A stretch of 44,468 nucleotides of DNA from Bacteroidota bacterium (GTDB lineage Bacteria > Bacteroidota > Bacteroidia > Chitinophagales > Chitinophagaceae), in NCBI GenBank assembly GCA_037129215.1, contig JBAXVH010000001.1, positions 1 to 44,468 of the forward strand, given 5' to 3'. The number at the start of each line of letters is the position of its first letter. Position 1 is the first letter of the stretch. The notes under the pieces are model-generated. The model was not told where the DNA came from. It worked only from the letters and a program-made list of their open reading frames with translations, and searched no databases. The position numbers and the translations under genes are program-made. Shown piece after piece: positions 11,119 to 44,468 of this stretch.

Positions 11119-11124
11119 ATCAAC

Positions 11125-11155: not shown

Positions 11156-11185
11156 CCAATTATATGATAGTATTCGAATAAAGAA

Positions 11186-12267: not shown

Positions 12268-12271
12268 TAAA

Positions 12272-12296: not shown

Positions 12297-12328
12297 TTAT
12301 TATAAACAGCTAAAAGAGGAGATTTATT

Positions 12329-15235: not shown

Positions 15236-15269
15236 GTAACTCTAGTTGCTATAGATAAAGGAGAATAAA

Positions 15270-16232: not shown

Positions 16233-16233
16233 T

Positions 16234-18003
16234 ATGGATCTAAGTATAAATGGTGGTTCATACGAACATTATTCACTTGCGACTAATAATCAACGGTGTA
16301 TAAATGCTTATATTACAAACCCCGGACCTGAAGGTAGAGGAAAAGCAACTCTTATTTCTAGAGTAGGTAAAAAATTAATGACTACTCTTACTGGTGTATC
16401 AACAATTAGAGAAATGATATTTCTTGATGATGTTCTTTATGTTGTAGCAAGTAATAAATTTTTTAAAGTGGTAATTGATTATACAGCACACACTGCATCT
16501 TTTACAGAATTAGGGACAATTAATAATTATTCAGGGCTGGTATCAATAGCAGCTAATCCATATCAAATTATTATTGTTAACGGGACAACATCTGGATGGT
16601 TATATTCCCCTTTAAATTATAATGCTGTCACAGTTGGACCTATTGGAGGTACAGGAGGAGATACATATACATTAACAATTAATGGAACTCCAATATATAC
16701 AGCATTTGCTGTAACTACTGCCCTAACTGTTGTAGCACTAATTACTAAAATCAATACACTGACAAGCACTACTAATATTACTGCAGCTAGCGGGGGTACA
16801 GGAATATTAACATTAACAGGAATTGATTCCACTCCTATAGTTATTACTGAGAGTGGAACAGGATTTACTGCAGGGACAGATGGTATCACTGTATCTACAG
16901 GCCCTTTTTCTACAGGAACAGCTAATGCTTTTGCTCAAATAATAGACCCTGATTTTCAAGGTGGAAGTTGTGTAGCATTTTTAGATGGTTATTTCTTTAT
17001 TGCTGTTCCAGATAGTAATAGATTTTATGCTAGTCAAATAAATGATGGTTCGGCATATGATGCATTAGACCTTGCTACAGCAGAAATTAATAATAGTCCT
17101 ATTGTATCTTTACAAGTTAAAAATAGACAATTATGGATATTTAAAAAAGATTACATAGAAGTATGGTATGATGCAGCTAATGCAACAGGAATGCCGTTAG
17201 CACCACGAATAGGCAGTGAACTATCTATTGGGTGTATTGCTCCTGCCTCAGTTATTAATATTGATAATACCTTATACTGGTTTGACAGTAGAAAATTTAT
17301 TGCCATGGCTGTTGATTCATCTGCAGTAACTTCACAAACTACAGGTAATGCTGCAGTATCAGTAAGCACAGATGCTTTGAATAATATTTTTTCTGAATAC
17401 GAAACAATTGAGGATGCTGTGGCTTGCGGTTATCAAGAACGTGGTCATTTAATGTATCAAATTACATTTCCAACAGAAAATAAAACATGGGTATATGATT
17501 TAACAACAAAAACTTGGCACGAACGAACATTTTATGATAGTACTTTTGATGTATATGATCCTGATTTGGCAGAAATGGCTGTAAGTAATAATGGATTAAC
17601 AGTTGTTGGAAATAGAAATTCTTCTAAGTTATATATTTCACACCCAAATTATTTTAATGATGCGGGCACAGATATTTATTGTGTAAGATCAACGGCTCAA
17701 ATTAATCAAGATTTTAAATATTTTGGTATTGATATGTTAGAATTATGTTGTACCACAGGATTAGCTAATTCCTCAGGAAGTGGATCAGATCCTATGATTA
17801 GTATGAGATATTCGAATGATGGTGGATATACTTGGAGTAATGAGCAAATGCGGTCATTAGGACAAATTGGTGAATATGGAAAAAGAATTATTTGGAATAG
17901 ACTTGGGTCATCAGCGAATTGGATATTTGAATTTACAATTGTTGCTCCAATTAAGTGGTCTATTGTTAGTGGAAGCATAAATATTACAGAAATAGAGGTA
18001 TAA
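16234..18003 (+). CDS. Large beta-rich tail hub or 'DNA stabilisation'-type protein (P22 gp10-like role inferred)
   Basis: ATG at 16234 lies 1 nt after the upstream stop (track start 16189 is inside the previous gene). About 590 aa and beta-propeller-like. Assignment rests on size, position and general resemblance only. Confidence 0.4.
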
Positions 18004-18004
18004 C

Positions 18005-19288
18005 ATGAGCAAAATAATAGGCGAACCAATATTTTCTGCATTTGATAACAATGGAGATCCTTTAAATGGGGGTTTTGTATATAGTTATTCCGCAGGATCT
18101 TCTACACCATTAGCAACCTATCCTACATTAACAGATGCGGCTAATTCTACAAACGCCAATAGTAATCCTGTACAATTAAATAGTAGAGGTGAAGCTAATA
18201 TTATTATTAAAGGATCTACTAAATTAATATTAAAAGATGCGTTGTTAAATACTATATGGACTGTAGATAATATTGCTGATGTTACATCTAATTCCTTTTC
18301 GGAAATTGTTGATGTCAATGGCAACCCAATTATTACTTTTACAGCAGTTGCTAGTGCTATTAATCGATTAGAAATTAGAAATAGTACAACAACAAATCCT
18401 CCTGTAGTTACAGTTACGGGTACAGATACTAATATTGGTCTTCAAGTTACAACTAAAGGCTCAGGAGTATTAGCTGTAACAGGTGCTACTACTGTAACTG
18501 GAAACACTACTATAACAGGCAATACTACTGTAACAGGCACTATACAAGCTACTGGTGCTATTTCTACAGCAAGTAATTTAACTGTAACAGGCAATGTAAT
18601 TATTACAGATCATTTAGTTGGTTCATTATCTGGTGGCACATCTTTACCATTGGCTACTGGTGTCACAGGGAATTTAGCCGTTAGTAATTTAAATAGCGGT
18701 ACATCTGCCTCTGCTTCTACATTTTGGAGGGGGGACGGTACATGGGCATCAGCCACTACAGGTAGTCTAGTATTATTAACATCTGCTTCAGCATCTAGTC
18801 AAGCCACAGTAGATTTTACAAGTTTAAGTTTATCTACTTATAGTGCACTTAGAATTATTGGTACTCAGATAAAACCTGTTAATAATAATGTTACATTATC
18901 TATGAGATATTCTACAGCAGGAACTTTTGATACAGGAAGTAATTATAAATCTTCTTTATTTAGAAATACTGATGTTGCCAGTGGTTTATCAGGAAGTACC
19001 GCTGGAACTACATCTATAGCTATTAATTCCACTAGTGATCCATTAGGAAATAGTACTTATAATACTCTTAACTTTGATTTATTACTTTATAATCCTGCAA
19101 ATACTGTACAATATCATATGGCCACTTGGCATGCAGTATATTATTCTCAATCTAGTGCTTTACTTAGTGCACCAGGTTCTGCATTATATACTGCCTCAGT
19201 AACCGCAATAGATGGAGTAAGATTTTTTATGGATAGTGGAAATATATCTACAGGACTATTTTATGTCTATGGAATTAGAAATACTTAA
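18005..19288 (+). CDS. Tail fibre protein 2
   Basis: N-terminal [27 protein letters not shown] fibre-type motif, VTGNTT repeats, C-terminal domain paralogous to fibre 1 (ends [20 protein letters not shown] versus GFRLLMSSGNIASGTVYLYG). Confidence 0.7.
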
Positions 19289-19302
19289 TTATATGATATA
19301 AT
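19275..19302 (+). promoter_or_regulatory. Putative promoter TTAGAA-N16-TGaTATAAT that would give a leaderless mRNA for 19309..19812
   Basis: The -10 is at 19297-19302 and the ATG at 19309 sits at the expected transcription start. There is no SD. Architecture matches the promoter at 1997..2024. Confidence 0.4.
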
Positions 19303-19308
19303 AGCTAT

Positions 19309-19812
19309 ATGAAATTTGCTTTTAAAACCATAGACAATGTAAAAGCAGCACAATTTTTTTTAGAAGATCCTCTCCTATGCTTTATGGCACTAGGAGATGA
19401 AGCCCTAAAAGACTTTGATAATAATAGAGGATATAACCCTGCCCCATGTACAATAACAGGGATTTATCATAAAAATAAATTAATTTGTATAGTACAAGCA
19501 ACATTATTTACGGAAAGTACTGTATCACTTCATTTATATTTAAAAAGTAATTTACACCATAGTGGTATATTAAAACCTTTACATATAGAATATGGTAAAT
19601 ATTTACAAAAATATTATCCAAATCTTAAAAAAGTTATGATAATTAGCCCTACACCTTGTAAACATGTACATGATGCTATAAAAGGATTGGGATTTAAACA
19701 AGAGGGTTGTTTAACTAAATCAATGATTTGGAGAGGACAATTGGTGGATTTACTTATTTTTGGTCGAGAATTACTTCCAAAAGTAGAAAATAAATTATTA
19801 ATAGGTAATTAA
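19309..19812 (+). CDS. Hypothetical protein, weakly GNAT-acetyltransferase-like (moron-like insert in the late operon)
   Basis: 167 aa. The C-terminal GFKQEGCLTKSMIWRGQLVDLLIFGRE resembles GNAT C-termini. The acetyl-CoA motif is not clear. Confidence 0.3.
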   Translation: MKFAFKTIDNVKAAQFFLEDPLLCFMALGDEALKDFDNNRGYNPAPCTITGIYHKNKLICIVQATLFTESTVSLHLYLKSNLHHSGILKPLHIEYGKYLQKYYPNLKKVMIISPTPCKHVHDAIKGLGFKQEGCLTKSMIWRGQLVDLLIFGRELLPKVENKLLIGN

Positions 19813-19814
19813 CA

Positions 19815-21236
19815 ATGGCAAGTACTACACAATCTGCATCAGGCTTAGCAGGATCAACTAATGTTGCTAATGCTGGACCTAACTTAGTTTATAGTCAAGG
19901 CGGTGGTAAAACTAAAGAAGCAAAAGCCTTAAATTCTGCTATTCAAATAAATCCAAATAATATGGTAGATTTGTTAAAATCAGGACAACAAGCACAACAA
20001 CAATATTATCAACAAGGACTACAATATTATACACAGGCTGTAAATACAGCTTCTCAGCAAATACAACAAAGTTATAATACAGCTAATGCTACATTACAAC
20101 CTATTTCTATAGCTGGGCAACAAGCCATGGCAGAACAAATGAAAATGTTGGGATTACAACCTATTTCCCTTACTTCTAGTTATGCTAACAGACTTAATGG
20201 AATTGGGGTTAGTAATACTACCGATTTACAAAATCAAATTCAATCTGCTGAAAACCTTACAGATCCAGCAGCTCGTGCTGCGGCTAAACAAGATATTATT
20301 TCAAAACTTAATACTTTAAATACCCCTTTTGATTTAGCAGGAAAGAAAGCGGCCCTAGTTGCTCCTGATGAGCATCAATTAGCTTTACAGAATGTAAGAA
20401 ATCAATATAATGCTGGACAACCATTTAGTCAAGAAGAAGCTTATTTATCTGACAAAAACATTGGGTTCACAGCAAGGAGAGATGCCGCAGCTTCCGCTGT
20501 TAGTATGAAACAAGATTATAATGCTAAAGTAGCTGATTTAGAGACTCAAAATGCTGCAGCTACGCTTACAGGAAATAAACTTCAAGGATTGACTAATGAT
20601 TACAATCAATTCTACAGCCCTGAAAGTCAGAAAGCATATACAGGTGAAGAAGTTGGCGCAAAACTTGCTTCAACTCCAGGATATGAAAATCAATTAGCAT
20701 CAGGAACTGCCGCCATTGCTAGACGAGGGGCTGCTGTTGGAATGTTAAATAGTGGTAATACATTAGCATCTTTACTTGAATATGGCCAAGGATTAGCTGC
20801 TAATACTTTTAGTCAATATATGGGAAATTTAAATTCTATTTCTGGTTTGGGAGCTCAATTTACTAATTCTATAGCTAATAACCAAGTAGGTGAAGGTGCT
20901 GCTCAATCTAGTTTAGCTACAGGTCTTGGTAGTGCTGGTGCACAAACGTATAATAATATTGGTAATTCTATAAATAGTAGTAATGCAGCCCAAGCTAATT
21001 TACTTCAACAAACTGCTCAAGCTAATGCTGCTTTCCAATATAATCAGAAACAAGCTAATTTAGATAGACAACAAGCTGCTAGTAATGCTGCTTTAGGTGC
21101 TACCGCCGGTATAATGAATGCTGGAACTAATGCAGCAGCATGGGGATATAATGTTTATCAAAATCAGCAACAAGCTAATTCTTTTGCTGCTAACTCAGGT
21201 GCATCATTTAGACCGTCTGGCTATTGGCAAGTATAG
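19815..21236 (+). CDS. Putative internal virion or ejection protein (Gln/Asn/Ala-rich)
   Basis: 473 aa, low complexity, first of three large genes at the end of the structural operon. Confidence 0.45.
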   Translation: MASTTQSASGLAGSTNVANAGPNLVYSQGGGKTKEAKALNSAIQINPNNMVDLLKSGQQAQQQYYQQGLQYYTQAVNTASQQIQQSYNTANATLQPISIAGQQAMAEQMKMLGLQPISLTSSYANRLNGIGVSNTTDLQNQIQSAENLTDPAARAAAKQDIISKLNTLNTPFDLAGKKAALVAPDEHQLALQNVRNQYNAGQPFSQEEAYLSDKNIGFTARRDAAASAVSMKQDYNAKVADLETQNAAATLTGNKLQGLTNDYNQFYSPESQKAYTGEEVGAKLASTPGYENQLASGTAAIARRGAAVGMLNSGNTLASLLEYGQGLAANTFSQYMGNLNSISGLGAQFTNSIANNQVGEGAAQSSLATGLGSAGAQTYNNIGNSINSSNAAQANLLQQTAQANAAFQYNQKQANLDRQQAASNAALGATAGIMNAGTNAAAWGYNVYQNQQQANSFAANSGASFRPSGYWQV

Positions 21237-21286
21237 GTGACTTATGTTAAATCAAAATAGAAATTCTTCAGGATGGGTAGTCTAAT

Positions 21287-22780
21287 ATGTTAACAAAAAC
21301 TGATTTACTTAGTACAGATCTTCCTAATGCAGATGCACGAGATGTACAATATCGAGCAACTAATCCTGCTCAACAAGCACCTATAGTTCCTGCTGGCGCT
21401 GATCCATCACTTGGTTGGATGCAGGGGGTCATGGCAGCTAAAGATCTTCAATTTAAACAAAATGAAGATGCTAATAGAAAAGGAATGTTAGATATTGCAC
21501 AACATGGCGATATCAGAGAAGAACGTGTTTCTATGCACGGAGCAGAGTCTTTTGATTGGAAAAGACAAGATAGAGCCCAAGAACAATTTATTCAACAAGG
21601 AATGGCAACATCATTCCAACAAGGTGGTTATGAAGGAGTTATAGATTTCTTAGGGGCTAATGATCCTCAAAGAGCTATGGATTTTACTAAACAAAAATTA
21701 GAACTTGATGCTAGTATTATGGGCAATAAAGTAATGCAATCTTTAGTACCAAGTAAACAAGCAGAAGCTATGGTAGAAGGTTATAATGTAATAGGTAAAA
21801 TGGGGCAGTCATTATTAAATGCTCCTGAACAAGATAGAAGTGGTATGTATCAACATATGTTACCTATTATTAAAACTATTAATCCTAACGCGTCTGATGG
21901 ATTAGATTCTAATGCAATTAATATGTTTATGTTAGCTGCTGGACAAGCTATGCCAGAGAGTCAATTATTTGGTGCTCAGAGAGCTCAATTAACTTCTGAA
22001 TCTGCTATGGGTAAACTAGATATTGATATTCGATCTAGATTGCAGAATGGTGAGACTATGGAAAATAGTCCATCACTTAGAGGAATGATTTCTGAATATA
22101 AACAGCATGAAGTTAATGCTGACTATAATAAGGAAAAATTAGACAGTATACAATATAAAAATATGATGGTTAATGCTGGACAAGCAAAAGACCAAGCACA
22201 AGCTAATGCAGCTAAATATCAAATTACTTCTAATATGAATTCTAAATTACAAGCTGAAAGTAAGAGATTTATAGAACTACAAGACCAAAAGAATACATTT
22301 GAAGGTGCTATGGATGCTATCGCTAGTGGTGGTGGTGGTGCTGCGCAAACAGCTGCTTATAGAAATGTCGCTATGATGTTTAATAAAGGCGCACTATCTG
22401 AACCTGACGTTGCTGCATTTGCTAATAGTGATAATACTGTTGCAGTTGCCAGAAAGAAATTAGAAAGTGTATATAGCCCTAACGGTATTCAAGCATTAAA
22501 CCCTACAGAAATTCAAAGACTTAGAATATTAGTTGATAAAGTATATGAAAGAGCTTCTATTAAGCAACAAACTATAAATGATAGGTATAAAGGAATGGCA
22601 CAGAAATTTGGTGTTGATGAAAAAGATTTGTCAATATATGATCCTTCTTCTCCTAATGACTGGATGCAACCTAATGTCCCACCAGATATTGCTGAACAGG
22701 CTCGTGCTGCTGTAGCAGCGGGCGCTAGTAAAGCTGCTGTAAATCAGAGAGTTAAAGAATTACTAAAAGGAAATCAATAA
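21287..22780 (+). CDS. Putative internal virion or ejection protein
   Basis: 497 aa, helical and charged. Call rests on position. Confidence 0.45.
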   Translation: MLTKTDLLSTDLPNADARDVQYRATNPAQQAPIVPAGADPSLGWMQGVMAAKDLQFKQNEDANRKGMLDIAQHGDIREERVSMHGAESFDWKRQDRAQEQFIQQGMATSFQQGGYEGVIDFLGANDPQRAMDFTKQKLELDASIMGNKVMQSLVPSKQAEAMVEGYNVIGKMGQSLLNAPEQDRSGMYQHMLPIIKTINPNASDGLDSNAINMFMLAAGQAMPESQLFGAQRAQLTSESAMGKLDIDIRSRLQNGETMENSPSLRGMISEYKQHEVNADYNKEKLDSIQYKNMMVNAGQAKDQAQANAAKYQITSNMNSKLQAESKRFIELQDQKNTFEGAMDAIASGGGGAAQTAAYRNVAMMFNKGALSEPDVAAFANSDNTVAVARKKLESVYSPNGIQALNPTEIQRLRILVDKVYERASIKQQTINDRYKGMAQKFGVDEKDLSIYDPSSPNDWMQPNVPPDIAEQARAAVAAGASKAAVNQRVKELLKGNQ

Positions 22781-24621
22781 TGGGTTCTTTTGATGATTTA
22801 ATTCCTAAACAGCCAGATACAAGTTCTCCTGAAGTTAACACTACTCCAGATAATTCTGTTGCTTCGCCTAAAAATCAATTTCAAGATTTAGTTCCTAAAC
22901 AAGAAGCACAACAAGAGCCAGTACATAATAGTGCTTTTATGTCTGCTATAGACGGCTGGAATAGGGCTTTTGGTAGAACTGCTGAAGGCGGATTACAATT
23001 ATTATCTAATTATCTCCCAGATAAATTTAATAAAGCTGTTACACAATTGAATCAACAAAAAGAAAGAGAATATGCCCAAGATCTTATAGATCATCCAGTA
23101 GCTTCAAAAATAGGGGAGTTTTCAGGATATATTGGACAAGAGGCCTTATTACCAGTAGCTAAAGCTAATCTTGCTACTAAAATAGCATCTTATGCTGCTA
23201 CAGGTGGAACTTTAATGGGGAGTCAATATGGATCTCCAGAACAAAGACAAGAAAGAGGCTTATATGGGGCTGCAATGTCTGGCGTATTTGGGGCTGCAGG
23301 TGAACTAGGCTGGATGGGTGCTAAATCCTTATTAAATTCCACGGCTGAATCTTCTCCAGGTTTATTAAGGAAATTATTCAAACCAGAAGATGCTGCCACA
23401 CAGGAAATTGCTTCTAATATTAGTAATACAACTAATTTAAACAATACGTTAGTTAGAGGACAAGCTGCTGACAGAGTCGGTGTAACATTAACTCCAGGAG
23501 AAACTGTGGGAGGTAATATATTACCTCAGGCAGAGAAAGGATATTTAGTTTCTCAACAAAGTAAACTAGAAGCAGCTAAATATTTAAATGACAGATCTAG
23601 TGTATTAAAAACAAAAGTTAAAGACCTTATAGATAATTTTGTTCCTGAAGGTGATGAAGTAGCTAAAACAACTAAAGCTAAAATGTATGAAGACTTAGCA
23701 CCCTTACAAGCTACTCCTCAAACATCAGAAGCTTTATTAAGTCATCCTGTAATTTCTAATGAACTTCAAGCACTAAATAAAAATCCTTTGATGCCTCAAG
23801 CTTTAAAAGAAATGCCTGATAACAGCGTATTAAAACTTGATGCCGTAAAAAAAGAGATTGATAGTCAATTATATAATAATAAAACATTTTTAAATGGAAA
23901 TGAAAAAACAATATCAGCTTCTGAAAAATCTGTTTTACAAGATGCTAGAGCACAGATTGTTGATAGATTAGATAGTGAATATCCTCAATATGCTCAAGCT
24001 AGGAAAATAGCTGAAAGACTTACATTAAAGAGTCAGATTAATAAAGAATTAGGAATGATTAAACCAGAACCTAGAGCTATAAATGGTGAGGTTACTTTAG
24101 ATCAGATGTATAATAAATTATGGAGCACTCCTGAAAAACAATCTAGATTTATAGAAGCTGTTAAACGTACCGGTGGTAATGACTATCAAGCTTCTGATGT
24201 AATACAAGTATTAAATCAGATTAGACAATCGCCTTTAGAATCATTGCTTAAAGCAAAACCAGAAGGCGTTAATGCAGGTACTTCTATAAGAGGAAATCTT
24301 ATGAATGGATCTGCGACTATCTTTAGTCGTCTTTCAAGTTTCGTAGATGATCTTACACTAGGTAGATATAATAAAGCATTGGTTGATTTAACAATTAATG
24401 GGAAATGGAAACCGGACGTTGCTAAATTAATGTCTAAACCAAATGAACAAACATTATTAATGACATTTAAAAAAGTTTTAGATAAAGTATCTATTGCTGG
24501 TCCTGGTATGTCTGCAAGACGTGTTGCTCATATATTTGATGGTAGTGGTCCACAAGGTTTTACAGATACTTATTTAGCACCGCCAGGTGATTCTTATTTA
24601 GACGACAAGTCTAAAAAGTAG
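22780..24621 (+). CDS. Putative internal virion or ejection protein
   Basis: 613 aa. ATAATG overlap with the upstream gene. Last gene of the rightward operon. Confidence 0.45.
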   Translation: MGSFDDLIPKQPDTSSPEVNTTPDNSVASPKNQFQDLVPKQEAQQEPVHNSAFMSAIDGWNRAFGRTAEGGLQLLSNYLPDKFNKAVTQLNQQKEREYAQDLIDHPVASKIGEFSGYIGQEALLPVAKANLATKIASYAATGGTLMGSQYGSPEQRQERGLYGAAMSGVFGAAGELGWMGAKSLLNSTAESSPGLLRKLFKPEDAATQEIASNISNTTNLNNTLVRGQAADRVGVTLTPGETVGGNILPQAEKGYLVSQQSKLEAAKYLNDRSSVLKTKVKDLIDNFVPEGDEVAKTTKAKMYEDLAPLQATPQTSEALLSHPVISNELQALNKNPLMPQALKEMPDNSVLKLDAVKKEIDSQLYNNKTFLNGNEKTISASEKSVLQDARAQIVDRLDSEYPQYAQARKIAERLTLKSQINKELGMIKPEPRAINGEVTLDQMYNKLWSTPEKQSRFIEAVKRTGGNDYQASDVIQVLNQIRQSPLESLLKAKPEGVNAGTSIRGNLMNGSATIFSRLSSFVDDLTLGRYNKALVDLTINGKWKPDVAKLMSKPNEQTLLMTFKKVLDKVSIAGPGMSARRVAHIFDGSGPQGFTDTYLAPPGDSYLDDKSKK

Positions 24622-24727
24622 TTTCATTATAAACGCACCAGATAACAAGTGCTGCAGTTAAGAAACCTAGTCCCGCTAATGGGACTAGGACACCAATACC
24701 TAAAGCTATCATCATTACAGTTGGCAT
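24611..24727 (-). CDS. Possible 38-aa hydrophobic peptide (MPTVMMIALGIGVLVPLAGLGFLTAALVIWCVYNETTF)
   Basis: AAGGA RBS 7 nt upstream, 3 nt after the ClpX-like stop. However, its centre is also the 9-bp terminator hairpin, so the ORF may be fortuitous. Confidence 0.25.
   Translation of the reverse strand: MPTVMMIALGIGVLVPLAGLGFLTAALVIWCVYNETTF
24660..24692. terminator. Convergence-point hairpin terminator (CCTAGTCCC-gctaat-GGGACTAGG)
   Basis: Perfect 9-bp stem at 24666-24674/24681-24689, between the last + gene and the last - gene. A TTTCTT run follows on the minus strand. Confidence 0.6.
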
Positions 24728-37362: not shown

Positions 37363-37947
37363 TTAAAACTTATATATTAAATGACACATTGGAAAATCCA
37401 TACTAGCTTCTCTAGTATCTAAAGGAGGGTGAATATTGTCAAGACTAATAGTTTCATGACCATATTTATCAATCATTCGTTGCCAAAGGGCCTCACCTGC
37501 ACATGGGTCATAACCAGCACGCAAAGCTAAATAAACACCATATCGATCAGCGTTTGATTCATTAATAGTAGGAGATATAACGGGAATATCCCAATTTAAT
37601 AAATGTCCTAGCATAACATGACCAATTTCATGGCCTAAAATAATAGCCATTTCATCGTCTGTTTGTAGAAATTCTAGCATCGCTGTCGTGATTGTAACTG
37701 TTTTGCCGTCTGTGTATGCATTGATTTCGTCACTTTCATCCACAACTAGCGCAGGAAATTTAACACCACTATCTGTATACGCTTGAAGGGTCATAAAAAC
37801 AGCGTTAGCATGTTGTAGTTTTGTTTTTATATCCATTTTGGCTGATTTAAATGCGAAAACACTAGCAAGACTTAGTGTAACTAGAGATATTATAAGGATT
37901 CTGATATATTTATATTGAAATAGTTTTTTCATTGGCTCCATCATCAT
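37363..37947 (-). CDS. Secreted M48-family Zn metallopeptidase (paralog of 716..1150)
   Basis: Signal/TM segment ILIISLVTLSLASVFA. INAYTDG...DDEMAIILGHEIGHVMLGH (HExxH), SNADRYGVYLALRAGYDPC...HPPLDTRE. Confidence 0.7.
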   Translation of the reverse strand: MMMEPMKKLFQYKYIRILIISLVTLSLASVFAFKSAKMDIKTKLQHANAVFMTLQAYTDSGVKFPALVVDESDEINAYTDGKTVTITTAMLEFLQTDDEMAIILGHEIGHVMLGHLLNWDIPVISPTINESNADRYGVYLALRAGYDPCAGEALWQRMIDKYGHETISLDNIHPPLDTREASMDFPMCHLIYKF

Positions 37948-38731
37948 TTATATAATGTTTTAATTCTGTACTTACATATTCTTTTGGGTCTTTTTCTGTA
38001 GTGATAATTTTTAAATTATAAGATTTAGAATTATATGCATTTAATTTACATCTATGTTTAATTATATCATATAACTTCTGAAAAATTTTTGCTGCAGATT
38101 CTTGTCCTGGTTTATCGCCGTCTAACCATATAATTATATTTTCATAACGTAAGATAGAATCAATATATTCTTGTTTTAATTTAGTTCCAAACAAACACAG
38201 ACAATCTTCAATGTCACCAACACGAATACATGAAATAAAATCCTCTACTAATATAATTGTAGTATTATTTGGTTGATTGTTGTTTGATGCAACAAAAGCT
38301 ACATTAATGTTACCAACAGATAAATAGCTCTTATTAGGAAAAAATCTTCTTTGATAACCGTGAATATTACCATTCTCTATTACAGGGAAAATTAAACTTT
38401 CGCCTTTGAACTCAATACCTGAATTAGTAACAAATTCATCATACGGACAGTACATTATTTTGTATTTCTTAATTAAATTAGAGTAAATACCGTATTTAGT
38501 AAGCCATTTATTAGTTTCTAAAGAGAATTCTTTTTGATTTGTTACCAAATTAGAGGGGATATATAAAGAATTAAATTGTTCTATTTTTTCTCTAAAACTA
38601 TAAGAAACTTTAGAGTTAAATGTTGAATAACCACAAGAAAAACAATATGCACCATTCGTATACACACAAAAACACTGGTTTAAATGATCGTCTCCACATT
38701 GAACACATGAAGTACTCTTAGATATTAACAT
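37910..38731 (-). CDS. DNA primase (zinc finger + TOPRIM)
   Basis: CVQCGDDH...CFSCGY zinc finger. TOPRIM blocks ILVEDFISCIRV and IIWLDGDKPG. Confidence 0.85.
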   Translation of the reverse strand: MLISKSTSCVQCGDDHLNQCFCVYTNGAYCFSCGYSTFNSKVSYSFREKIEQFNSLYIPSNLVTNQKEFSLETNKWLTKYGIYSNLIKKYKIMYCPYDEFVTNSGIEFKGESLIFPVIENGNIHGYQRRFFPNKSYLSVGNINVAFVASNNNQPNNTTIILVEDFISCIRVGDIEDCLCLFGTKLKQEYIDSILRYENIIIWLDGDKPGQESAAKIFQKLYDIIKHRCKLNAYNSKSYNLKIITTEKDPKEYVSTELKHYINDDGANEKTISI

Positions 38732-39012
38732 GCGTCCTCAATCTGCCATATTCTATTAAAAGCTTCTCTAACAGAAATAGAATTTAATTTAGCTACTTTA
38801 CATATACGATTACAGAACGTATGTAGAAATACAGTATCTCTGTATTTAGCTGCGTCAATTAATACAGCAATCCATAAATGAACTTCTGGATTATATTTAC
38901 CTATTCGGTATTCGCTAATGTCGTGTAAACCACCTAAATAGCTTTTATCAGTAGATAAAGACTCATTATTGGGAACACCATATTCTAGGTTTTTCCATAA
39001 TCCAAATTTCAT
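38725..39012 (-). CDS. Hypothetical protein (95 aa)
   Basis: Co-oriented ORF overlapping both neighbours. Confidence 0.55.
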   Translation of the reverse strand: MKFGLWKNLEYGVPNNESLSTDKSYLGGLHDISEYRIGKYNPEVHLWIAVLIDAAKYRDTVFLHTFCNRICKVAKLNSISVREAFNRIWQIEDAC

Positions 39013-39554
39013 AATGAGGCCTCTTTATTATAATAAGTATTAATTTGGTATCTAATAATTATAACATTTGCTAACATGTGTGATAAATGAAGACATTCAG
39101 ATTCATCATCAAAGTTATCCCCAAATGAATATTTAATATAATGTCTCGCTAAAGCATCTAATAATAATATTATACTTATTTGTTGTTTATAACTGTTTTC
39201 TCTGTATTTACCACTTTGTAATGCTAATGAACGTAATTTTATAAAATCATTAATAATATCTTTTGTTTCTGTAACATTATCATGTAATATTGTATCTTGA
39301 AGCGCTTGTAAAGTAGCTTGTATAACTTTTATATCTTTATTATTTTCTATATTTTTATTTAGTTCCTCAATTAATTCTCCTAGGCCATTAGCCCAGTCAT
39401 TACCGTTTAAAGTAGGTAAAAAACAATATCTAGCTCCTTCAGGCTTCCCTTCTTTTTGTTTCAATACTAGTTCTTCATTAGATAATTCATTTAATTGTCT
39501 ATTATCTTCAATGTCTTCATAATTAGACATAGTATAGTTGTCTGGTGTTAACAT
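39009..39554 (-). CDS. Hypothetical protein, possibly dATP/dGTP diphosphohydrolase-domain-like
   Basis: SGKYRENSYKQ...ALARHYIKY...DDESECLHLSHMLANVIII resembles the KY..NW / RH / D.ESG..HL.H...N pattern of that phage domain family, as remembered. The ATG at 39554 (TAATG overlap, GGAGG RBS) is preferred over 39572. Confidence 0.35.
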   Translation of the reverse strand: MLTPDNYTMSNYEDIEDNRQLNELSNEELVLKQKEGKPEGARYCFLPTLNGNDWANGLGELIEELNKNIENNKDIKVIQATLQALQDTILHDNVTETKDIINDFIKLRSLALQSGKYRENSYKQQISIILLLDALARHYIKYSFGDNFDDESECLHLSHMLANVIIIRYQINTYYNKEASL

Positions 39555-39781
39555 TATGCATCCTCCAAACAATCTTCGTCATAAGGATATTGATGATAAT
39601 TTAAATAATTATCCCAAGCCTTTCTAGCAAAATAATCTTCACTAAAAATAGTAGTTTCGATAGGTGAATTAGTACAATCTTTCACATCAAGTAATGTTAA
39701 TTCTGTATCTTCATCTATAGAATAAAATATTGTTACAGTTTCATTTTCTATATCCATATCAAAATGATATTTATATGACAT
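39554..39781 (-). CDS. Hypothetical acidic protein (75 aa)
   Basis: GGAGAA RBS and a consensus promoter directly upstream. Confidence 0.55.
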   Translation of the reverse strand: MSYKYHFDMDIENETVTIFYSIDEDTELTLLDVKDCTNSPIETTIFSEDYFARKAWDNYLNYHQYPYDEDCLEDA

Positions 39782-39802
39782 AATGTTCTCCTATATAATT
39801 CT

Positions 39803-39831
39803 ATTATACTAGAGATTAATTACCGTGTCAA
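39803..39831 (-). promoter_or_regulatory. Sigma70-type promoter TTGACA-N17-TATAAT
   Basis: The reverse complement reads TTGACAcggtaattaatctctagTATAAT. Its -35 overlaps the last codons of the endolysin gene. Confidence 0.65.
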
Positions 39832-40376
39832 CATAATTTATAGAGTTTTAATACATCAAATACATTAATTAATTTACCTTTTGAATAAATAGGTTTATGA
39901 CCAGCACCAACAGGAAATAATAGTGCGTTTCCATCCTCACTATATACGCCAGTGGCGTACAATTTAGCTTCTTTAGTACGTCTACCGATAATTTCTTTAG
40001 GTTTGTTCCATTTCATAAAATCATTGCATATAGTTTTATAATCTGCTTTCAAATTTATATCTCTAATAAGAGAAGATTTTTTCATACCACCAACACCCAC
40101 GTTATAACACCAACTAGTTAATGCGTCAAATTGATATTGCGTAATCTGCACTTTTAATGCATCATTAATAGGGTCAGTATATTTTGTAATTGATTTTTTA
40201 AGGAAGAATATCGCATCATCCATAGTTATATCTGGATGAGAAAGACTTAGATCGGGGATTTCTGTTTTTGTAGTGCCAATGCCTATAGTTACAACACCAA
40301 CACTGTCTAAATAAGGACTTAAAGAAATTCCTTCAAGTCCTATTATATTAACTAAACCTGCTAATGATATATTCAT
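39828..40376 (-). CDS. Endolysin, GH24 (T4 lysozyme-like) muramidase
   Basis: GLEGISLSPYLDSVGVVTIGIGTT carries the Glu-Asp-Thr catalytic pattern of GH24 lysozymes. Confidence 0.88.
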   Translation of the reverse strand: MNISLAGLVNIIGLEGISLSPYLDSVGVVTIGIGTTKTEIPDLSLSHPDITMDDAIFFLKKSITKYTDPINDALKVQITQYQFDALTSWCYNVGVGGMKKSSLIRDINLKADYKTICNDFMKWNKPKEIIGRRTKEAKLYATGVYSEDGNALLFPVGAGHKPIYSKGKLINVFDVLKLYKLC

Positions 40377-40585
40377 CGGTGTAATCCTGATTGTTTCATC
40401 CTCTCAGTATATCCTGGAGTATCGTTTGGGTCATAATGACCAACTTGTATTTGTATATCCCCTGAGTTTACATATGTATTAGTACTTCCATCACTGTTAA
40501 ATACAGTAGTAGTGCTAGAAGCTCTAGAAACACCGGCCATAATAATTAAAGCTAATGCTGTTGTTACCATAATTTTATTTAACAT
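40373..40585 (-). CDS. Small signal-anchored or secreted protein in the lysis cassette (spanin-like role possible)
   Basis: N-terminal hydrophobic segment VTTALALIIMAGVSRA. Overlaps both the holin and endolysin genes. No lipobox Cys. Confidence 0.35.
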   Translation of the reverse strand: MLNKIMVTTALALIIMAGVSRASSTTTVFNSDGSTNTYVNSGDIQIQVGHYDPNDTPGYTERMKQSGLHR

Positions 40586-40883
40586 TATGTTTCTCCTTAT
40601 TATGCGTATTTTTTAATTTATTCAATTTTAATAAAGTTTTCAATAATTCATTTCTATTTTCTTTTAATTGTTGTTTATGGTATTTATGTAAAGCAATTGT
40701 TAAAGTTACTAAAGCTGTAATTAATAGTGTAGAGATTAAAATCATAGCTGGAGTAAATCCATTGACAAAGCTATCTCTTAATACCCAAATTACGTCAGCT
40801 ATAACAGCTATCCAACCAGCGATAGACATAGCCTCAATAAGATTGACAGCAGTTTTTATATGTAATAAAAAAGAAGTTTTCAT
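40575..40883 (-). CDS. Putative holin
   Basis: 102 aa with two or three TM helices, then a highly basic C-terminal tail (KYHKQQLKENRNELLKTLLKLNKLKNTHNKEKHNVK). Heads the lysis cassette. Confidence 0.5.
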   Translation of the reverse strand: MKTSFLLHIKTAVNLIEAMSIAGWIAVIADVIWVLRDSFVNGFTPAMILISTLLITALVTLTIALHKYHKQQLKENRNELLKTLLKLNKLKNTHNKEKHNVK

Positions 40884-41039
40884 ATGTCCTCAAAAAGTTA
40901 GTTAAGAAGTCTTAAATGCACTACTGGATAGTTTTACATTCAAAACTGCTTAAATAACTAAAATGTTTGGCACCCAGTTCTAGACTACTATTACGTCGGT
41001 GTTTACACTCTTGTATGAGTTTTGTACTATATAAGATTA

Positions 41040-41074
41040 GTACATATTACTTCCTAATCTTATAAGTTCTTCAC
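41040..41074 (-). promoter_or_regulatory. Perfect 11-bp inverted repeat (TATAAGATTAG-N13-CTAATCTTATA) in the holin leader
   Basis: Arms at 41040-41050 and 41064-41074, lying between the upstream terminator and the holin start. Confidence 0.4.
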
Positions 41075-41153
41075 TAACCTTTTGCAGTATGCTGATATTA
41101 ATCCATATACATAATGCAAGTAGTTGTTAGTTATCATGGCCTCAAACATTTAG

Positions 41154-41205
41154 TTAAAAAAGTGGTCTGACTAATAAAGACTTTGGAGGTCTATTCAAAC
41201 CACTT
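41154..41205 (-). terminator. Intrinsic terminator-like hairpin (11-bp stem with one G-U) followed by a U-run
   Basis: On the minus strand, AAGUGGUUUGA (41205-41195) pairs with UCAGACCACUU (41170-41160), followed by UUUU. Confidence 0.55.
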
Positions 41206-41383
41206 TAATAAACACACTCCTCAACTGCCTGCTGATTACTCAGTCCCTAGCTACTTTCAAGTCTTTCTAGGTTGCTTATCGATCTTACTAAGTCTTTTTA
41301 AAGTCTCCTGCGGTATGCTTGAGGAGGGTTTTTACTTAGTAATTCCGAGGCTTCGAATGTGTTTATTAAAACTTGTTTCTCTT
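41155..41383 (-). ncRNA. Candidate small RNA or terminated leader transcript of about 230 nt
   Basis: Bounded by the promoter at 41390..41418 and the terminator at 41154..41205. No SD-led ORF on this strand. A 13-bp perfect long-range helix (41358-41370 with 41204-41216) encloses about 140 nt. Further complementary pairs are CCUCCUCAA/UUGAGGAG and AUUACU/AGUAAU. Confidence 0.45.
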
Positions 41384-41389
41384 ATTACT

Positions 41390-41418
41390 ATTATCTCATT
41401 TCTTACTACCTTTGTCAA
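41390..41418 (-). promoter_or_regulatory. Sigma70-type promoter TTGACA-N17-GATAAT
   Basis: The reverse complement reads TTGACAaaggtagtaagaaatgaGATAAT. Confidence 0.55.
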
Positions 41419-41567
41419 CTCTTTTCTTATTCCTTAAAAGTGATTGTTGATCCCCTCGGCTAGTTAGGGAAGACCTTCTAGCTCTGCTGTCATCGACGAG
41501 CATTTTTATCAAGGAGATTAATAATAACTCTTTTTTTTCTTATTTATTCTTTATTCTTTATACTTAT

Positions 41568-41596
41568 AGTATATCAATTTATAGGGTATAAGTCAA
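41568..41596 (-). promoter_or_regulatory. Sigma70-type promoter TTGACT-N17-TATACT
   Basis: The reverse complement reads TTGACTtataccctataaattgaTATACT. Lies in tandem upstream of the 41390..41418 promoter. Confidence 0.45.
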
Positions 41597-41640
41597 GCCT
41601 TTTGTCCGCTAAGTGCATACTCTTTTCGGACAAAAGAGGC
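41597..41640. terminator. Long hairpin (GCCTTTTGTCCG ... CGGACAAAAGAGGC) downstream of 41662..41895
   Basis: About 12 bp with one bulge. TTTATTAGGTGTTTTTT follows on the plus strand. It is the first element after the minus-strand gene stop, so it may act bidirectionally. Confidence 0.5.
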
Positions 41641-41661
41641 TTTATTAGGTGTTTTTTAAGG

Positions 41662-41895
41662 CTATAGTAAGCAATTTATAGATTCTGGATCTAATTCTAA
41701 TCGTTGCATAATTGTATTTACAATAGCATGACAATCAGACATTTCACCAGAATGAAGAATTAGTGCTACACCATCTTTAACAATAGTAGACATCCAGCAA
41801 TCTTCTTCATCACTATAATAAACACTCATAGTAGGATTGTCTTCAATATTAATATATAATACTGCCCTATCTTTCCCTAAAATTTTAACATACAT
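41662..41895 (-). CDS. Hypothetical protein (77 aa)
   Basis: GGAG-type RBS (ataggagattaatATG). Co-oriented with the HAD gene. Confidence 0.55.
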   Translation of the reverse strand: MYVKILGKDRAVLYINIEDNPTMSVYYSDEEDCWMSTIVKDGVALILHSGEMSDCHAIVNTIMQRLELDPESINCLL

Positions 41896-41904
41896 ATTAA
41901 TCTC

Positions 41905-42480
41905 CTATGGAATATAGTAAAATGGATTTGGTAATTTAAATACTTTTTTAGCGTAGCCGCCAAGTAAATCTGATTTTTGATCGCCTATAGAAGCTATTAT
42001 AACATAACCTTGCTGTTCTATTTCCGCTCTTTTTGTTGTTTTAAATGATGACGCTGAAGACAAATCATTTTTATTTCTTAAAATAATTTGCTCATATTGC
42101 TTATATCCTGCAGAATCAAGGGCTTTTACAGTGTTTTTGCGTAATTTCTCTGATCTACCAGAAAGAAAGAATACTTTAATACCTAATTTGATAGCTTTTT
42201 CATATAATTTGAACACAGGTTTAATAGCTGTGCTGTTAATTTTATTTAGTTGCAACTTTACTTGCCAAGGAAGATTAGCAAAGTCATTAGCGTCTATATC
42301 TGCATAATTTGATATAGAAGTTTCGTCAATATCAAGCACAATACATGAATTTTTAATTTTTTTATTATAATTTTGAATAAAAACCATAGCTTTTTTAGCT
42401 ATAACATCAATTTCATCAAAATAAGCACCAGTATTATAATATTCTCTAAGTTTTAACTTAAGTTGTCCAATATTATCCAT
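41905..42480 (-). CDS. HAD-superfamily phosphatase, class B/C acid phosphatase-like, without a signal peptide
   Basis: Motif I VLDIDETSISN (DxDxT), motif II FFLSGRSEK, motif IV IGDQKSDLLGG. Confidence 0.75.
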   Translation of the reverse strand: MDNIGQLKLKLREYYNTGAYFDEIDVIAKKAMVFIQNYNKKIKNSCIVLDIDETSISNYADIDANDFANLPWQVKLQLNKINSTAIKPVFKLYEKAIKLGIKVFFLSGRSEKLRKNTVKALDSAGYKQYEQIILRNKNDLSSASSFKTTKRAEIEQQGYVIIASIGDQKSDLLGGYAKKVFKLPNPFYYIP

Positions 42481-42510
42481 ACTATTCTCTGCCTAATTAG
42501 CTATGTTTAC

Positions 42511-42539
42511 AGTATACAGACTCCATATGTATTTGTCAA
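42511..42539 (-). promoter_or_regulatory. Sigma70-type promoter TTGACA-N17-TATACT (leftward arm of a divergent promoter pair)
   Basis: The reverse complement reads TTGACAaatacatatggagtctgTATACT, upstream of 41905..42480. Confidence 0.55.
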
Positions 42540-42554
42540 CTACCATTAACAGTA

Positions 42555-42582
42555 TTGCAAATTATTTTTATTGTGATATAAT
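42555..42582 (+). promoter_or_regulatory. Sigma70-type promoter TTGCAA-N16-TGaTATAAT (rightward arm of the divergent pair)
   Basis: -35 at 42555-42560, extended -10 at 42574-42582. Confidence 0.6.
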
Positions 42583-42996
42583 TATATATGTACGTGAACA
42601 CATAAGTAGACTCCGCTATTAAGAGACGGCGGAAACATACTCTACGATGTCCGGGGTATGTTAAGAACATAAAAACTCGACTTCAGACTGGTTAGTTGCC
42701 AGCAACAGATAGTTATACAATAACCCCACCAATGTCAATGCGGGGAACTATCGAAGGTAGATTCAAACCTTATTCGCTAGTAGAGAATAGAATTGAACTA
42801 ATGAAAATTGTTCTACTTAAGCTTTATAAGACATCAAGATTCTTCTCCTGCTTTCCTTCAATGTCAAGCAGGCTTATGTTAAAAGATTATTACTTAAGTA
42901 ATCTAAACATAAAGAGATCTTATATATTATACTTATATCTGAAGAGAGTAACGTCTCTTAATTGACAACTATGTCCTAAATAAATAGGTAATAATT

Positions 42997-43197
42997 ATGA
43001 TAAATAATATAAAATTAACTTATAGATATTTTTGTAATGATTGTAATGCACGATATAAATTCAAATTAACTCCATTAGAAGCCCAAAATAAATTTCCATG
43101 TAATTATTGTGACAATGCTTACATTACACATAATTTAAAAACAAATAATAATCTATTACACAGATTAGTTCATTTCATTTGCAAATATACAAGGTAG
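42997..43197 (+). CDS. Small zinc-ribbon protein (CxxC...CxxC)
   Basis: FCNDCNARY...PCNYCDN. 66 aa. Confidence 0.5.
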   Translation: MINNIKLTYRYFCNDCNARYKFKLTPLEAQNKFPCNYCDNAYITHNLKTNNNLLHRLVHFICKYTR

Positions 43198-43208
43198 TAA
43201 GGAGACGT

Positions 43209-43394
43209 ATGTGCCCTATATATGAAAAATATTGTGAAAAATGCGATAAAACAGAGGAATATCTCTTGACACTAAGTAAGAAAGATAATATAATAACATG
43301 TAGAGACTGTAAAAATGATATGACCTCCCTTGTATCCAGCGGTAACTTTAAATTGTATGGCGAAGGGGTATATAAACCAAGTAAAAAGGAGTAA
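43209..43394 (+). CDS. Small zinc-ribbon protein (FmdB-like CxxC...CxxC)
   Basis: MCPIYEKYCEKCDK...TCRDCKND. AAGGAG RBS before the ATG at 43209; the track start is 43179. Confidence 0.55.
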   Translation: MCPIYEKYCEKCDKTEEYLLTLSKKDNIITCRDCKNDMTSLVSSGNFKLYGEGVYKPSKKE

Positions 43395-43397
43395 GTT

Positions 43398-43520
43398 ATG
43401 CAAGTATGTCCAATTTGTAAAAATGAATATATCATTTGTAAATGTAAGTTCTGTGGTCAGTCACCTAACCATAGCGACCCTATTCAGTATCCATTAAGAC
43501 CACCATACAGCAGATTGTAA
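43398..43520 (+). CDS. Small zinc-ribbon protein (40 aa; not in the ORF track)
   Basis: AAGGAG RBS 7 nt upstream. MQVCPICKNEYIICKCKFCGQSPNHSDPIQYPLRPPYSRL. Confidence 0.45.
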   Translation: MQVCPICKNEYIICKCKFCGQSPNHSDPIQYPLRPPYSRL

Positions 43521-43620
43521 AAGAAAACCCGCTCGTACATTTTTCAATGCAGAGGAGCGGGCCATGTTATTTATAGTATAACATTATTCATGGTAACAAT
43601 TGACAGTTGGAGATTTAATC

Positions 43621-43815
43621 ATGCCGAATAAAATTAAAAGAGGGCCTAGTAATGTAGCTTACTTTAAGAATTACTCAGCCCAAGATAAACGTGAAAAGAA
43701 TAAGACTAAGAAAATAGAGAAACATTCAGCTAAGCACCCAGATGATAAACAATCTATTGAACGGAAAGTACCTGATTATGGCGTAGGATGGGAAGGTAGA
43801 AAGAAAAGAGAGTAA
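43621..43815 (+). CDS. Small highly basic protein (64 aa)
   Basis: GGAG RBS before the ATG at 43621; the track start is 43600. Lys/Arg-rich. Confidence 0.5.
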   Translation: MPNKIKRGPSNVAYFKNYSAQDKREKNKTKKIEKHSAKHPDDKQSIERKVPDYGVGWEGRKKRE

Positions 43816-43829
43816 ATATTTAAAAATTA

Positions 43830-43838
43830 TGCTATAAT
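43830..43838 (+). promoter_or_regulatory. Possible extended -10 element (TGcTATAAT) upstream of the tRNA and clpP
   Basis: Intergenic. No convincing -35. Confidence 0.3.
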
Positions 43839-43924
43839 TATATTATGTAGACATACAGAATGAATAATCGTTACGCTTTCGACAGGTCTATAGAAGAGCT
43901 AAGCACCTCTAAAAAATGCTATTT

Positions 43925-44000
43925 GCGCCCGTAGCTCAGTTGGGTAGAGCATTAGCATTGTAGCTGATGGAGGCAGGTTCGAATCCTGCCGGACGCACCA
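43925..44000 (+). tRNA. tRNA-like gene with a non-canonical anticodon arm (closest to tRNA-Thr UGU lacking one loop nucleotide), encoded CCA
   Basis: Acceptor GCGCCCG/CGGACGC (one C:A mismatch), D arm GCTC-AGTTGGGTA-GAGC, T arm GCAGG-TTCGAAT-CCTGC, discriminator A plus CCA. The anticodon stem TTAGC/GCTGA leaves only a 6-nt loop (ATTGTA), or 8 nt if the closing C-G pair opens. Confidence 0.7.
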
Positions 44001-44010
44001 TTTGTATTGT

Positions 44011-44032
44011 ACTAGGAACGAACTAGGAACGC
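44011..44032 (+). repeat. Tandem 11-bp direct repeat ACTAGGAACG(A/C)
   Basis: actaggaacga actaggaacgc lies just 3' of the tRNA. A related cctagaaca follows at about 44056. The AGGAAC core also recurs in the 1.8-2.0 kb region. Confidence 0.6.
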
Positions 44033-44196
44033 TAATCACTTAGAATGGCGCACCAGTCCTAGAACAGACGGGGCGAATCGTCTATAAATAGCGCCCATGG
44101 ATTTTGCAAAATATTATTTTGCATCCACCCTTCAAATTGTCTTGATCATATCAAAATCCGAAAACAAATGCTAAGAATAGTCAAGGAGAATAAAGA

Positions 44197-44468
44197 ATGG
44201 TAGAGACTGCAGCTAGTCATTTAGTTCCAATGGTCGTTGAACAAACCTCTCGCGGGGAGCGGTCTTACGATATATATTCTCGCTTACTAAAAGAACGTAT
44301 TATCTTCTTATTAGGTCAAGTTGAAGATAATATGGCCAATCTAGTCGTTGCCCAATTGTTATTTCTTGAGTCAGAAAACCCAGAAAAAGATATTTTTCTC
44401 TATATCAATTCACCGGGCGGTGTCGTAACGTCAGGTATGGCTATTTATGATACGATGCAATTTATCAA
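44197..44468 (+). CDS. clpP: ClpP, N-terminal part (3'-partial in window; continues at 1..392)
   Basis: [89 protein letters not shown] matches the conserved cellular ClpP N-terminus. Confidence 0.92.
44414..44468. repeat. Terminal exact repeat, copy 2 (identical to 1..55)
   Basis: See the feature at 1..55. Confidence 0.95.

Follow-up and report, generated by a model that had tools for sequence, protein, structure and literature searches.

A candidate multi-domain structured RNA leader upstream of a holin-like gene in uncultured, podovirus-like aquatic phages

The window, by which we mean the whole 44,468-nucleotide stretch of DNA analysed here, is an AT-rich phage genome (~44.5 kb, ~29% G+C). 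Genes for terminase, portal, capsid and tail-related proteins lie on the plus strand between ~3.8 and 24.6 kb (3822..24621), and an extensive unit on the minus strand covers the interval from ~42.5 to 24.7 kb, with the phage's operon-end terminator, a short GC-rich hairpin, at 24689..24666. In the direction of transcription, the minus-strand unit encodes a HAD acid phosphatase and a 77-aa open reading frame (ORF), followed by a 778-nt gene-free gap (41661..40884), a holin-like protein with two transmembrane segments (2TM), a 70-aa signal-peptide protein and a lysozyme. Beyond the lysozyme come a dGTP-diphosphohydrolase-like protein, a primase, an M48 peptidase, a DnaB-like helicase, a family A DNA polymerase, exonucleases and PhoH. 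A DNA-level similarity search gave no match among cultured phages, and a tblastn search with the holin gave none in INPHARED. The DNA polymerase is 27-29% identical to known polymerases, and the nearest relatives of the terminase are uncultured freshwater podoviruses and EBPR podovirus 1. The gap and its flanks hold the following features, given in the order of transcription.

41595..41642, minus strand: hairpin ending the 77-aa ORF (inverted repeat I4 and a predicted fold), its 3' arm overlapping the -35 element of P2
41568..41596, minus strand: promoter P2, TTGACT-N17-TATACT with a TG upstream, 10/12 positions matching the sigma-70 consensus
41543..41565, minus strand: tandem copies of an A-rich heptamer, AAUAAAG, where the P2 transcript begins, their number differing among close relatives
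41436..41532, minus strand: RNA domain A, in which a ~21-bp closing helix encloses a hairpin with invariant CGUCGAUGAC and a second, variable hairpin
41390..41418, minus strand: promoter P1, TTGACA-N17-GATAAT with a TG upstream, 11/12 positions matching the sigma-70 consensus and the spacer largely conserved
41377..41389, minus strand: conserved purine-rich first transcribed bases AGUAAUAAGAGAA, a motif that also follows the P1-like promoter of the related contig L010
41203..41376, minus strand: RNA domain B, the core of the 230-nt RNA, with a 16-22-bp closing helix around a ~135-nt multi-branch junction
41156..41206, minus strand: terminator-like hairpin T followed by six U residues (dG -16.4 kcal/mol, z -4.3), in this lineage only
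40957..41153, minus strand: third domain, with a predicted ~13-bp closing helix pairing AACUAAAUGUUUG with CAAACAUUUUAGUU, from folds and an inverted-repeat search
40955..41012, minus strand: block C, of which ~50 nt are identical in the related contig L002 (AAACACCGACGUAAUAGUAGUCUAGAACUGGGUGCCAAACAUUU)
40902..40953, minus strand: hairpin H, immediately 5' of the holin ribosome-binding site (dG -18, z -5.5)
40575..40883, minus strand: holin-like 2TM protein whose C-terminal tail is basic, with weak holin and SLATT matches
39828..40585, minus strand: 70-aa signal-peptide protein and phage lysozyme, in reading frames that overlap mutually and with the holin gene
39803..39831, minus strand: perfect consensus promoter (12/12) directly 3' of the endolysin, driving the replication genes

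We gathered relatives of this locus through protein-anchored look-ups and pattern scans, and compared the window with 10 related contigs that fall into three clades (~12 contigs overall, representing ~4-5 independent lineages). Near-identical contigs are L001 and L006 (IMG/VR), L013 (a Tara Oceans scaffold) and L014; L002-L004 (a 45-kb contig, holin 75% identical) were grouped with them in the window clade. A second clade, reached via the endolysin and the 77-aa ORF, comprises L007, L015, L016 and L017, the last from groundwater, and L010 and L011 form a third type whose endolysin is 55% identical. Scanning public collections with the P1 pattern returned only near-identical relatives and one chance match (L018), and a holin-alignment profile scan of viral contigs returned only a known contig. 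The phages that carry the leader are uncultured, aquatic and podovirus-like, and come from marine (Tara) and groundwater samples.

The two promoters of the gap held up well in this comparison. The TTGACA-N17-GATAAT element from which the first-pass annotation started is P1, and it is retained in L002, L007, L015 and L017 with almost invariant hexamers and a somewhat variable spacer; the sole hexamer deviation is TTGACT in L015 (10/12). Across clades the P1 region is similar beyond the hexamers, and P1 may itself be regulated, adding a further layer. The second promoter reported in tandem upstream, P2, is likewise conserved in position, with equivalents at 5392-5420 in L002 (11/12), 5284-5312 in L015 (12/12) and 941-969 in L007. 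Matches to the promoter consensus at 11 or more of the 12 positions numbered four in 38500..44468, against 0.5 expected from dinucleotide shuffles, and none of 200 shuffles reached four; promoter-like matches overall were not enriched. The replication promoter at 39831..39803 is kept in L002 (7072-7100). Transcription from P1 would start at approximately 41383, ~228 nt from the end of the U-run.

The place equivalent to 41595..41642 is occupied in L001, L002 and L007 by a hairpin of differing sequence, and the heptamer array, with 3.3 copies, is the leader's only tandem repeat. A type III toxin-antitoxin system (ToxIN-like) was rejected on the grounds that this 7-nt A-rich repeat is the only one present and that the downstream gene encodes a 2TM protein, not an endoribonuclease. 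We also rejected a genome-wide operator role for the motif TAGTAAGARAA, which occurs 6 times where 5.1 matches would be expected and is not enriched.

Conservation of the gap is concentrated in blocks. Between the window and L002, identity is 79% in domain A, 83% in the P1 region, 86% in domain B and 87% in block C, while the stretches between blocks are 20-48% identical, and the last 71 nt only 20%, so low that they cannot be aligned. The genes of the two contigs are 73-88% identical, about equal to the non-coding blocks A, B and C, and the proposal that these blocks are more conserved than the genes was rejected. From P2 to the holin ATG the leader is ~680 nt long, and whole-leader folds gave z scores of -4.5 for the window (678 nt) and -3.7 for L015 (719 nt). 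In every clade the leader is predicted to form beads on a string, each domain being closed by a duplex of 13-22 bp, and members of the L007 clade differ by the insertion or deletion of whole hairpins. In the window clade the modules run P2-A-P1-B, in the L007 clade P2-P1-B'-...-A', from which we conclude that A and B are independent modules.

Domain A gave a solid comparative signal for a folded RNA. Its homology between the window clade and the L007 clade is supported by BLAST (E = 1e-9), and in the two-clade alignment A7, 11 of 31 pairs are changed on both sides with 96.8% of cells paired, whereas controls with slid partners gave 0-2. A covariance model of the domain (R2) scored 104-121 bits on the sense strand against 22-24 bits on the antisense strand. 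The G-U pairs and these strand-asymmetric scores indicate an RNA on the holin strand and not a DNA element. Domain A sits upstream of P1 and is transcribed only by P2 in the window clade, so the functional full-leader transcript would start at P2 and run through P1. Searching public collections with the core pattern of domain A yielded 73 viral and 36 genome matches, all of which were rejected by model R2, and the GTDB genomes among the pattern matches gave no clue to the host.

Domain B forms the core of the RNA expected from P1. The 13-bp perfect closing helix described in the first-pass annotation is present and extends to 16-17 bp in the window; the ~175-nt domain has a fold z score of -4.3, and the RNA 41390..41150 as a whole folds at -63.3 kcal/mol (z -4.6). 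Covariation in relatives had been put forward as a check on the structure, and compensatory changes appear in B as they do in A: the domain B model has 59 pairs with 99.7% of cells paired, and seven pairs are changed on both sides, against 0-1 in slid-partner controls. The outer 4 bp of the closing helix (AAAC with GUUU), which overlap the 5' arm of T, include one compensatory change. Few independent lineages are available, so the covariation counts for A and B are strong hints and not proof. In L007 the domain B model finds a weak full-length match directly after P1 (15.8 bits), and the cross-clade matches as a set are weak (15.8, 13.3 and 11.1 bits); the putative cross-clade homology of B has weak support, mainly from position and shape. 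A pseudoknot had been proposed as well. The pairing in question, 41334..41319 with 41224..41209, is broken by uncompensated changes in L001, L013 and, partly, L002 (G41219A in both L001 and L013), and we rejected it both as a pseudoknot and as an alternative pairing.

Between T and the holin gene lies a further structured stretch. Within the third domain, the hairpin 41064..41030 shows one compensatory change. A 25-codon ORF in the same domain (41137..41060) is absent from L002 and its predicted start is paired, and it was rejected as a leader peptide. From the U-run to the holin ATG (40883) is 272 nt, matching the distance of about 270 nt given earlier, and the stretch 41150..40884 holds no minus-strand promoter match of at least 9/12, in keeping with the earlier view that the holin lacks a convincing promoter of its own. 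We folded seven leaders and found the holin ribosome-binding site mostly predicted open, with predicted partners that vary among relatives. As masking strands for the site, neither AAACACC nor the CU-rich strand of domain B behaved consistently across the seven, and masking was rejected; a search for long-range duplexes that would join domain A or B to the 5' UTR or to block C was uninformative.

Hairpin T belongs to the window's own lineage. A hairpin and U-run some 230 nt past P1 had been noted before and are indeed present; the stem consists of a 9-bp core (with one G-U pair) extended by A-U pairs, encloses a 24-nt interior that holds a 4-bp hairpin, and is followed by UUUUUU. An automated terminator scan misses T because its loop exceeds 8 nt, and our call was based on folding and reading of the sequence. 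T with its six U residues is present only in the window, L001, L013 and L014; L013 carries two substitutions in the 3' arm, both compatible with pairing, and on this sequence evidence T is maintained within the window's own sub-lineage. At the position of T, L002 has an unrelated 90-nt hairpin without a U-run. No terminator-like site was found after domain B in L002 or L015, and T is absent from the L007 and L010 clades, whose sequence at this place is likewise unrelated and has no U-run. T is the least conserved part: the segment 41202..41013, which includes it, is only 45% identical to L002, compared with 79-87% for the RNA blocks.

The sequence following T resembles the start of the holin gene. 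Namely, T together with the UUUUUUAACUAAAUGUUUGAGGCCAUG behind it looks like hairpin H together with the holin start region, through a 25-nt direct repeat of 84% identity (D1) that spans 40884..40908, from the 3' end of H through the holin start region, and recurs after T at 41136..41160. Given this repeat, T may have arisen by duplication of the pre-holin hairpin and start region, an event that would also have given rise to the 25-codon ORF.

Across the three clades the leader keeps its place in front of one gene. Homologues of the 2TM protein occur in L002, L007, L015, L017 and L010, and each has a P1-type promoter and a structured leader in front of it; the arrangement of P1-type promoter, long-stem domains and holin-like 2TM gene is found in the window clade, the L007 clade and L010/L011. 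The holin homologue of L010 is 41% identical and lies ~1.2 kb from the endolysin. It is preceded by TTGACA-N17-TATACT, AAUAGUAAGAGAAG and a 290-nt leader with two long-stem domains, which neither the A nor the B model detects (the second of them is missed by the domain A model). Because this arrangement persists with the endolysin elsewhere, we conclude that the partner of the leader is the holin-like gene, not the whole lysis cassette. With only three clades, the conserved gene order could reflect inheritance and not selection.

The most likely role for the ~680 nt, and one to which we give about an even chance, is that of a structured 5' leader of the holin gene acting in cis on holin expression. 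Under this model, the tandem host-type (sigma-70) promoters P2 and P1 would transcribe a leader composed of a chain of elements: domain A, domain B, the lineage-specific T, the third domain with block C, and H, ending at the holin ribosome-binding site. The leader would hold back or time holin expression in cis. A lethal gene that belongs to an early-type transcription unit and has consensus host promoters immediately before it would need some restraint. In the window lineage, partial termination at T may add to this restraint, which would yield a ~230-nt RNA from P1 and a ~400-nt RNA from P2. Across the family, the conserved agent would be the folded domains, which may serve as binding sites for a small molecule or for a protein of phage or host origin, or may be RNase III substrates that are cleaved in their long stems. 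The cis-regulatory step is one that we infer, because no terminator is conserved across clades and no shared expression platform was identified; that masking of the ribosome-binding site by thermodynamic folds is not consistent counts against it.

The main alternative role for the same domains is possible, if doubtful: A and B may be released from a precursor as stable non-coding RNAs, by RNase III in the ~20-bp helices or at T, and act in trans on host or phage targets, with the position beside the holin incidental or merely a matter of shared timing. The domains are self-contained, each closed by a duplex of 16-22 bp, and change their order without being lost; two near-consensus promoters would supply the RNA, T would give it a discrete 3' end in this lineage, and neither a masked ribosome-binding site nor a terminator is conserved that would couple the domains mechanically with the holin. 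Set against this, in all three clades, whose neighbourhoods are otherwise rearranged, the leader always shares the strand of the holin-like gene and lies immediately 5' of it, and most relatives have no terminator between the RNA and the holin gene.

Antitermination by a Q-type factor we regard as unlikely. According to this explanation, which takes up the lambda-like logic of the first-pass annotation, P1 is constitutive and yields a short RNA that ends at T, until a Q-type antiterminator, perhaps a zinc-ribbon protein, modifies RNA polymerase at P1 and gives late read-through into the lysis genes. Part of that logic stands, namely a real promoter, a conserved structured RNA, a terminator-like hairpin with six U residues and a promoterless holin gene, with promoter, hairpin and holin ordered in this genome as in lambda pR'-tR'-S. 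In addition, the P1 region is conserved beyond the hexamers, where a Q-type factor would load, and both substitutions in T of L013 preserve pairing. The rest found no support. L002 and the L007 and L010 clades lack T yet keep the promoter and the RNA domains, and the phage's clear operon-end terminator (24689..24666) is unlike T in form. None of the 46 ORFs scanned, the neighbouring genes among them, matched a Q-type antiterminator in Pfam or PHROGs, and the zinc-ribbon ORFs (42997..43520) that had been suggested for the part gave only weak, generic matches below the cut-off (Zn_ribbon_8, DUF7836 and FmdB-like); an antiterminator of a novel kind is conceivable. The lysis cassette does not head a late structural operon, as the structural genes are on the opposite strand and replication genes lie downstream. 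Moreover, a Q-type model leaves no role for the conserved fold or for domain A upstream of P1.

A riboswitch-type sensor, in which A and/or B would bind a metabolite and thereby choose between T and a read-through fold in this lineage, coupling lysis to the state of the host, is improbable in our judgement. A and B show the conserved, aptamer-like folds with covariation expected of such a sensor, with multiple branches, invariant junction or loop bases such as CGUCGAUGAC and variable peripheral stems, and the overlap of the outer 4 bp of domain B with the 5' arm of T is a point in its favour. However, the closing helices, at 16-22 bp, greatly exceed in stability the P1 helices that typically switch, the expression platform is not conserved (there is neither a shared terminator nor consistent masking of the ribosome-binding site), and no riboswitch family matched, even at E values up to 10. 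Finally, it is extremely improbable that the region is not an RNA at all and instead a DNA-level site (an origin, operator cluster or packaging site) or a hidden small gene: its tandem promoters and its place beside replication genes recall some phage origins, and it contains an 84-aa plus-strand ORF (41183..41437) as well as the 25-codon ORF 41137..41060, but substitutions cluster in compensatory pairs, G-U pairs fit the sense strand only, the antisense score is ~100 bits lower, the 25-codon ORF is missing from L002 with its start predicted within a helix, and the reading frame is not preserved in the L007-clade homologues.

Returning to the structured holin leader itself, we compared it with catalogued RNAs. 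At gathering thresholds, Rfam 15 identified only a tRNA in the whole window; at E values up to 10, the leaders of the window, L015 and L010 gave chance hairpin matches only, and ARAGORN found no tmRNA. A full-text literature search found no paper describing a structured leader upstream of a holin gene. Judged by sequence comparison, the leader is best described as a new RNA family, either a leader-type element or a phage non-coding RNA. It is a tentative possibility that the 0.5-0.7-kb leader represents a new class of multi-domain phage RNA, a lysis timer or gate whose folded domains would respond to a metabolite, a host factor or a phage protein and would set the moment at which a lethal holin gene behind constitutive host promoters is expressed.

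The timing of lysis is central to the fitness of a phage. Where it has been studied, late-promoter control and the chemistry of holin and antiholin proteins determine it, and to our knowledge RNA-based control has no counterpart among the known mechanisms (holin/antiholin, Q antitermination). If the leader RNA restrains or times the holin, this would be a new mode of lysis control, and one more family would join the short list of large structured phage RNAs with unknown roles. If it is merely a processed by-product, it would still be a new RNA family with solid comparative support. The leader could also serve as a marker for an uncultured aquatic podovirus-like lineage.

Several known systems resemble the locus in part. 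As in lambda pR'-tR'-S, a host-type promoter is followed ~200 nt on by a hairpin and U-run and then by a promoterless holin gene. The locus departs from lambda in several ways: the terminator is not retained across relatives, the ORF scans turned up no Q-like gene, the promoter has another conserved RNA domain (A) on its upstream side, and it is replication genes, not a structural late operon, that follow the lysis genes. Lambda 6S RNA is a by-product without a conserved fold of its own, whereas in the RNA of the window the fold, which covaries, is the feature that selection keeps. The likeness to lambda pR'/6S/tR' is a superficial one only.

Two other phage systems place structured RNA behind early promoters. 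In the T7 early region, the RNase III sites are simple intergenic hairpins behind the tandem A1-A3 promoters; here too, tandem strong host promoters are followed by irregular duplexes of ~20 bp that would suit RNase III, but the duplexes close conserved multi-branch domains inside a single leader. The HK022 put RNAs consist of two stem-loops of ~70 nt. By analogy with them, a structured RNA encoded close behind an early phage promoter could act on its own polymerase, but the domains of the window (97 and ~175 nt, multi-branch) differ from them in size and form.

Like attenuating leaders and riboswitches, the element is a conserved folded 5' leader between a promoter and a gene, and in the window lineage the terminator-like T borders the closing helix of domain B and shares part of it. 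It differs from them in its very long closing helices and in that no terminator, antiterminator or masking is conserved across relatives. The large, ornate GOLLD and ROOL RNAs of phages and prophages are thought to act in trans, and GOLLD expression has been linked to phage lysis. The leader resembles them in being phage-borne, hundreds of nucleotides long and rich in conserved hairpins and junctions. Unlike GOLLD and ROOL, it has no Rfam match, and it is a chain of separately clamped domains directly 5' of a gene, not a free-standing RNA beside tRNAs.

Host RNA polymerase seems to drive the minus-strand unit, which carries the lysis and replication genes, along its whole length. A perfect consensus promoter lies just beyond the lysis genes and is kept at 7072..7100 in L002, a contig with a 75%-identical holin. 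We found further promoter matches (11-12/12) 5' of minus-strand genes at 42539, 37276, 33438, 29570 and 27166. The unit meets the plus-strand structural genes at the clearest intrinsic terminator of the phage.

39803..39831, minus strand: consensus promoter, 12/12, directly 3' of the endolysin stop codon
24666..24689: intrinsic terminator, a canonical GC-rich hairpin then a T-run, where the two transcription units converge
42481..42996: divergent control region, 516 nt, gene-free, between the two transcription units

G+C in the control region reaches up to 0.41, and its conservation against L002 is partial, with three blocks at 74-92% identity. Between the zinc-ribbon ORFs, the near-identical relative L001 carries a 40-nt insert (1121..1160) that matches window positions 1848..1887 on the opposite strand with 100% identity; it may be a small segment that is mobile or prone to recombination.

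Two sets of repeats mark the structured RNA leader of the holin-like gene and its surroundings.

40884..40908 and 41136..41160: 25-nt direct repeat, 84% identity, the second copy after the terminator-like hairpin
41543..41565: repeated heptamer (AAUAAAG), 5' end of the transcript from the leader promoter P2

The direct repeat duplicates the holin start region 3' of the terminator-like hairpin and thereby creates a 25-codon ORF (41137..41060), which shows no conservation in L002. Copy number of the heptamer varies among the window and its near-identical relatives L014, L013 and L001.

One candidate for a nucleic-acid-binding partner of the leader is a DUF7022-like protein, whose gene lies between holin and endolysin in the second clade (L007 2038..2229; L015 6437..6628).

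43600..43815, plus strand (opposite to the leader): small, very basic DUF7022-like protein (PNKxKRGPSNxAYFKNY...)

More distant relatives contain a further non-coding stretch, perhaps an origin or an additional RNA, with higher G+C and packed with short repeats (TATACAT-like and CCCC/GGGG motifs). Near the contig end of L010 (8560..8597), a second promoter is followed by AAGUAAGAGAAG.

L010 7527..8196 and L012 6558..7477: non-coding stretch, 650-900 nt

The protease load of the window is unusual for a 44-kb phage, and the same set is present in relatives.

24..392, 716..1150 and 37363..37947: part of a Clp protease (at the edge of the window) plus two peptidase-like proteins of the M48 type

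The tRNA of the window is of doubtful identity and function.

43925..44000, plus strand: tRNA, Tyr(GTA) by ARAGORN, 53.7 bits by Rfam

Its anticodon arm can be drawn only with a loop of 6 nt or 8 nt, and its acceptor stem contains a C-A mismatch. It also lacks the long variable arm that is usual in bacterial tRNA-Tyr. The gene may have decayed, or it may represent an oddity of decoding.
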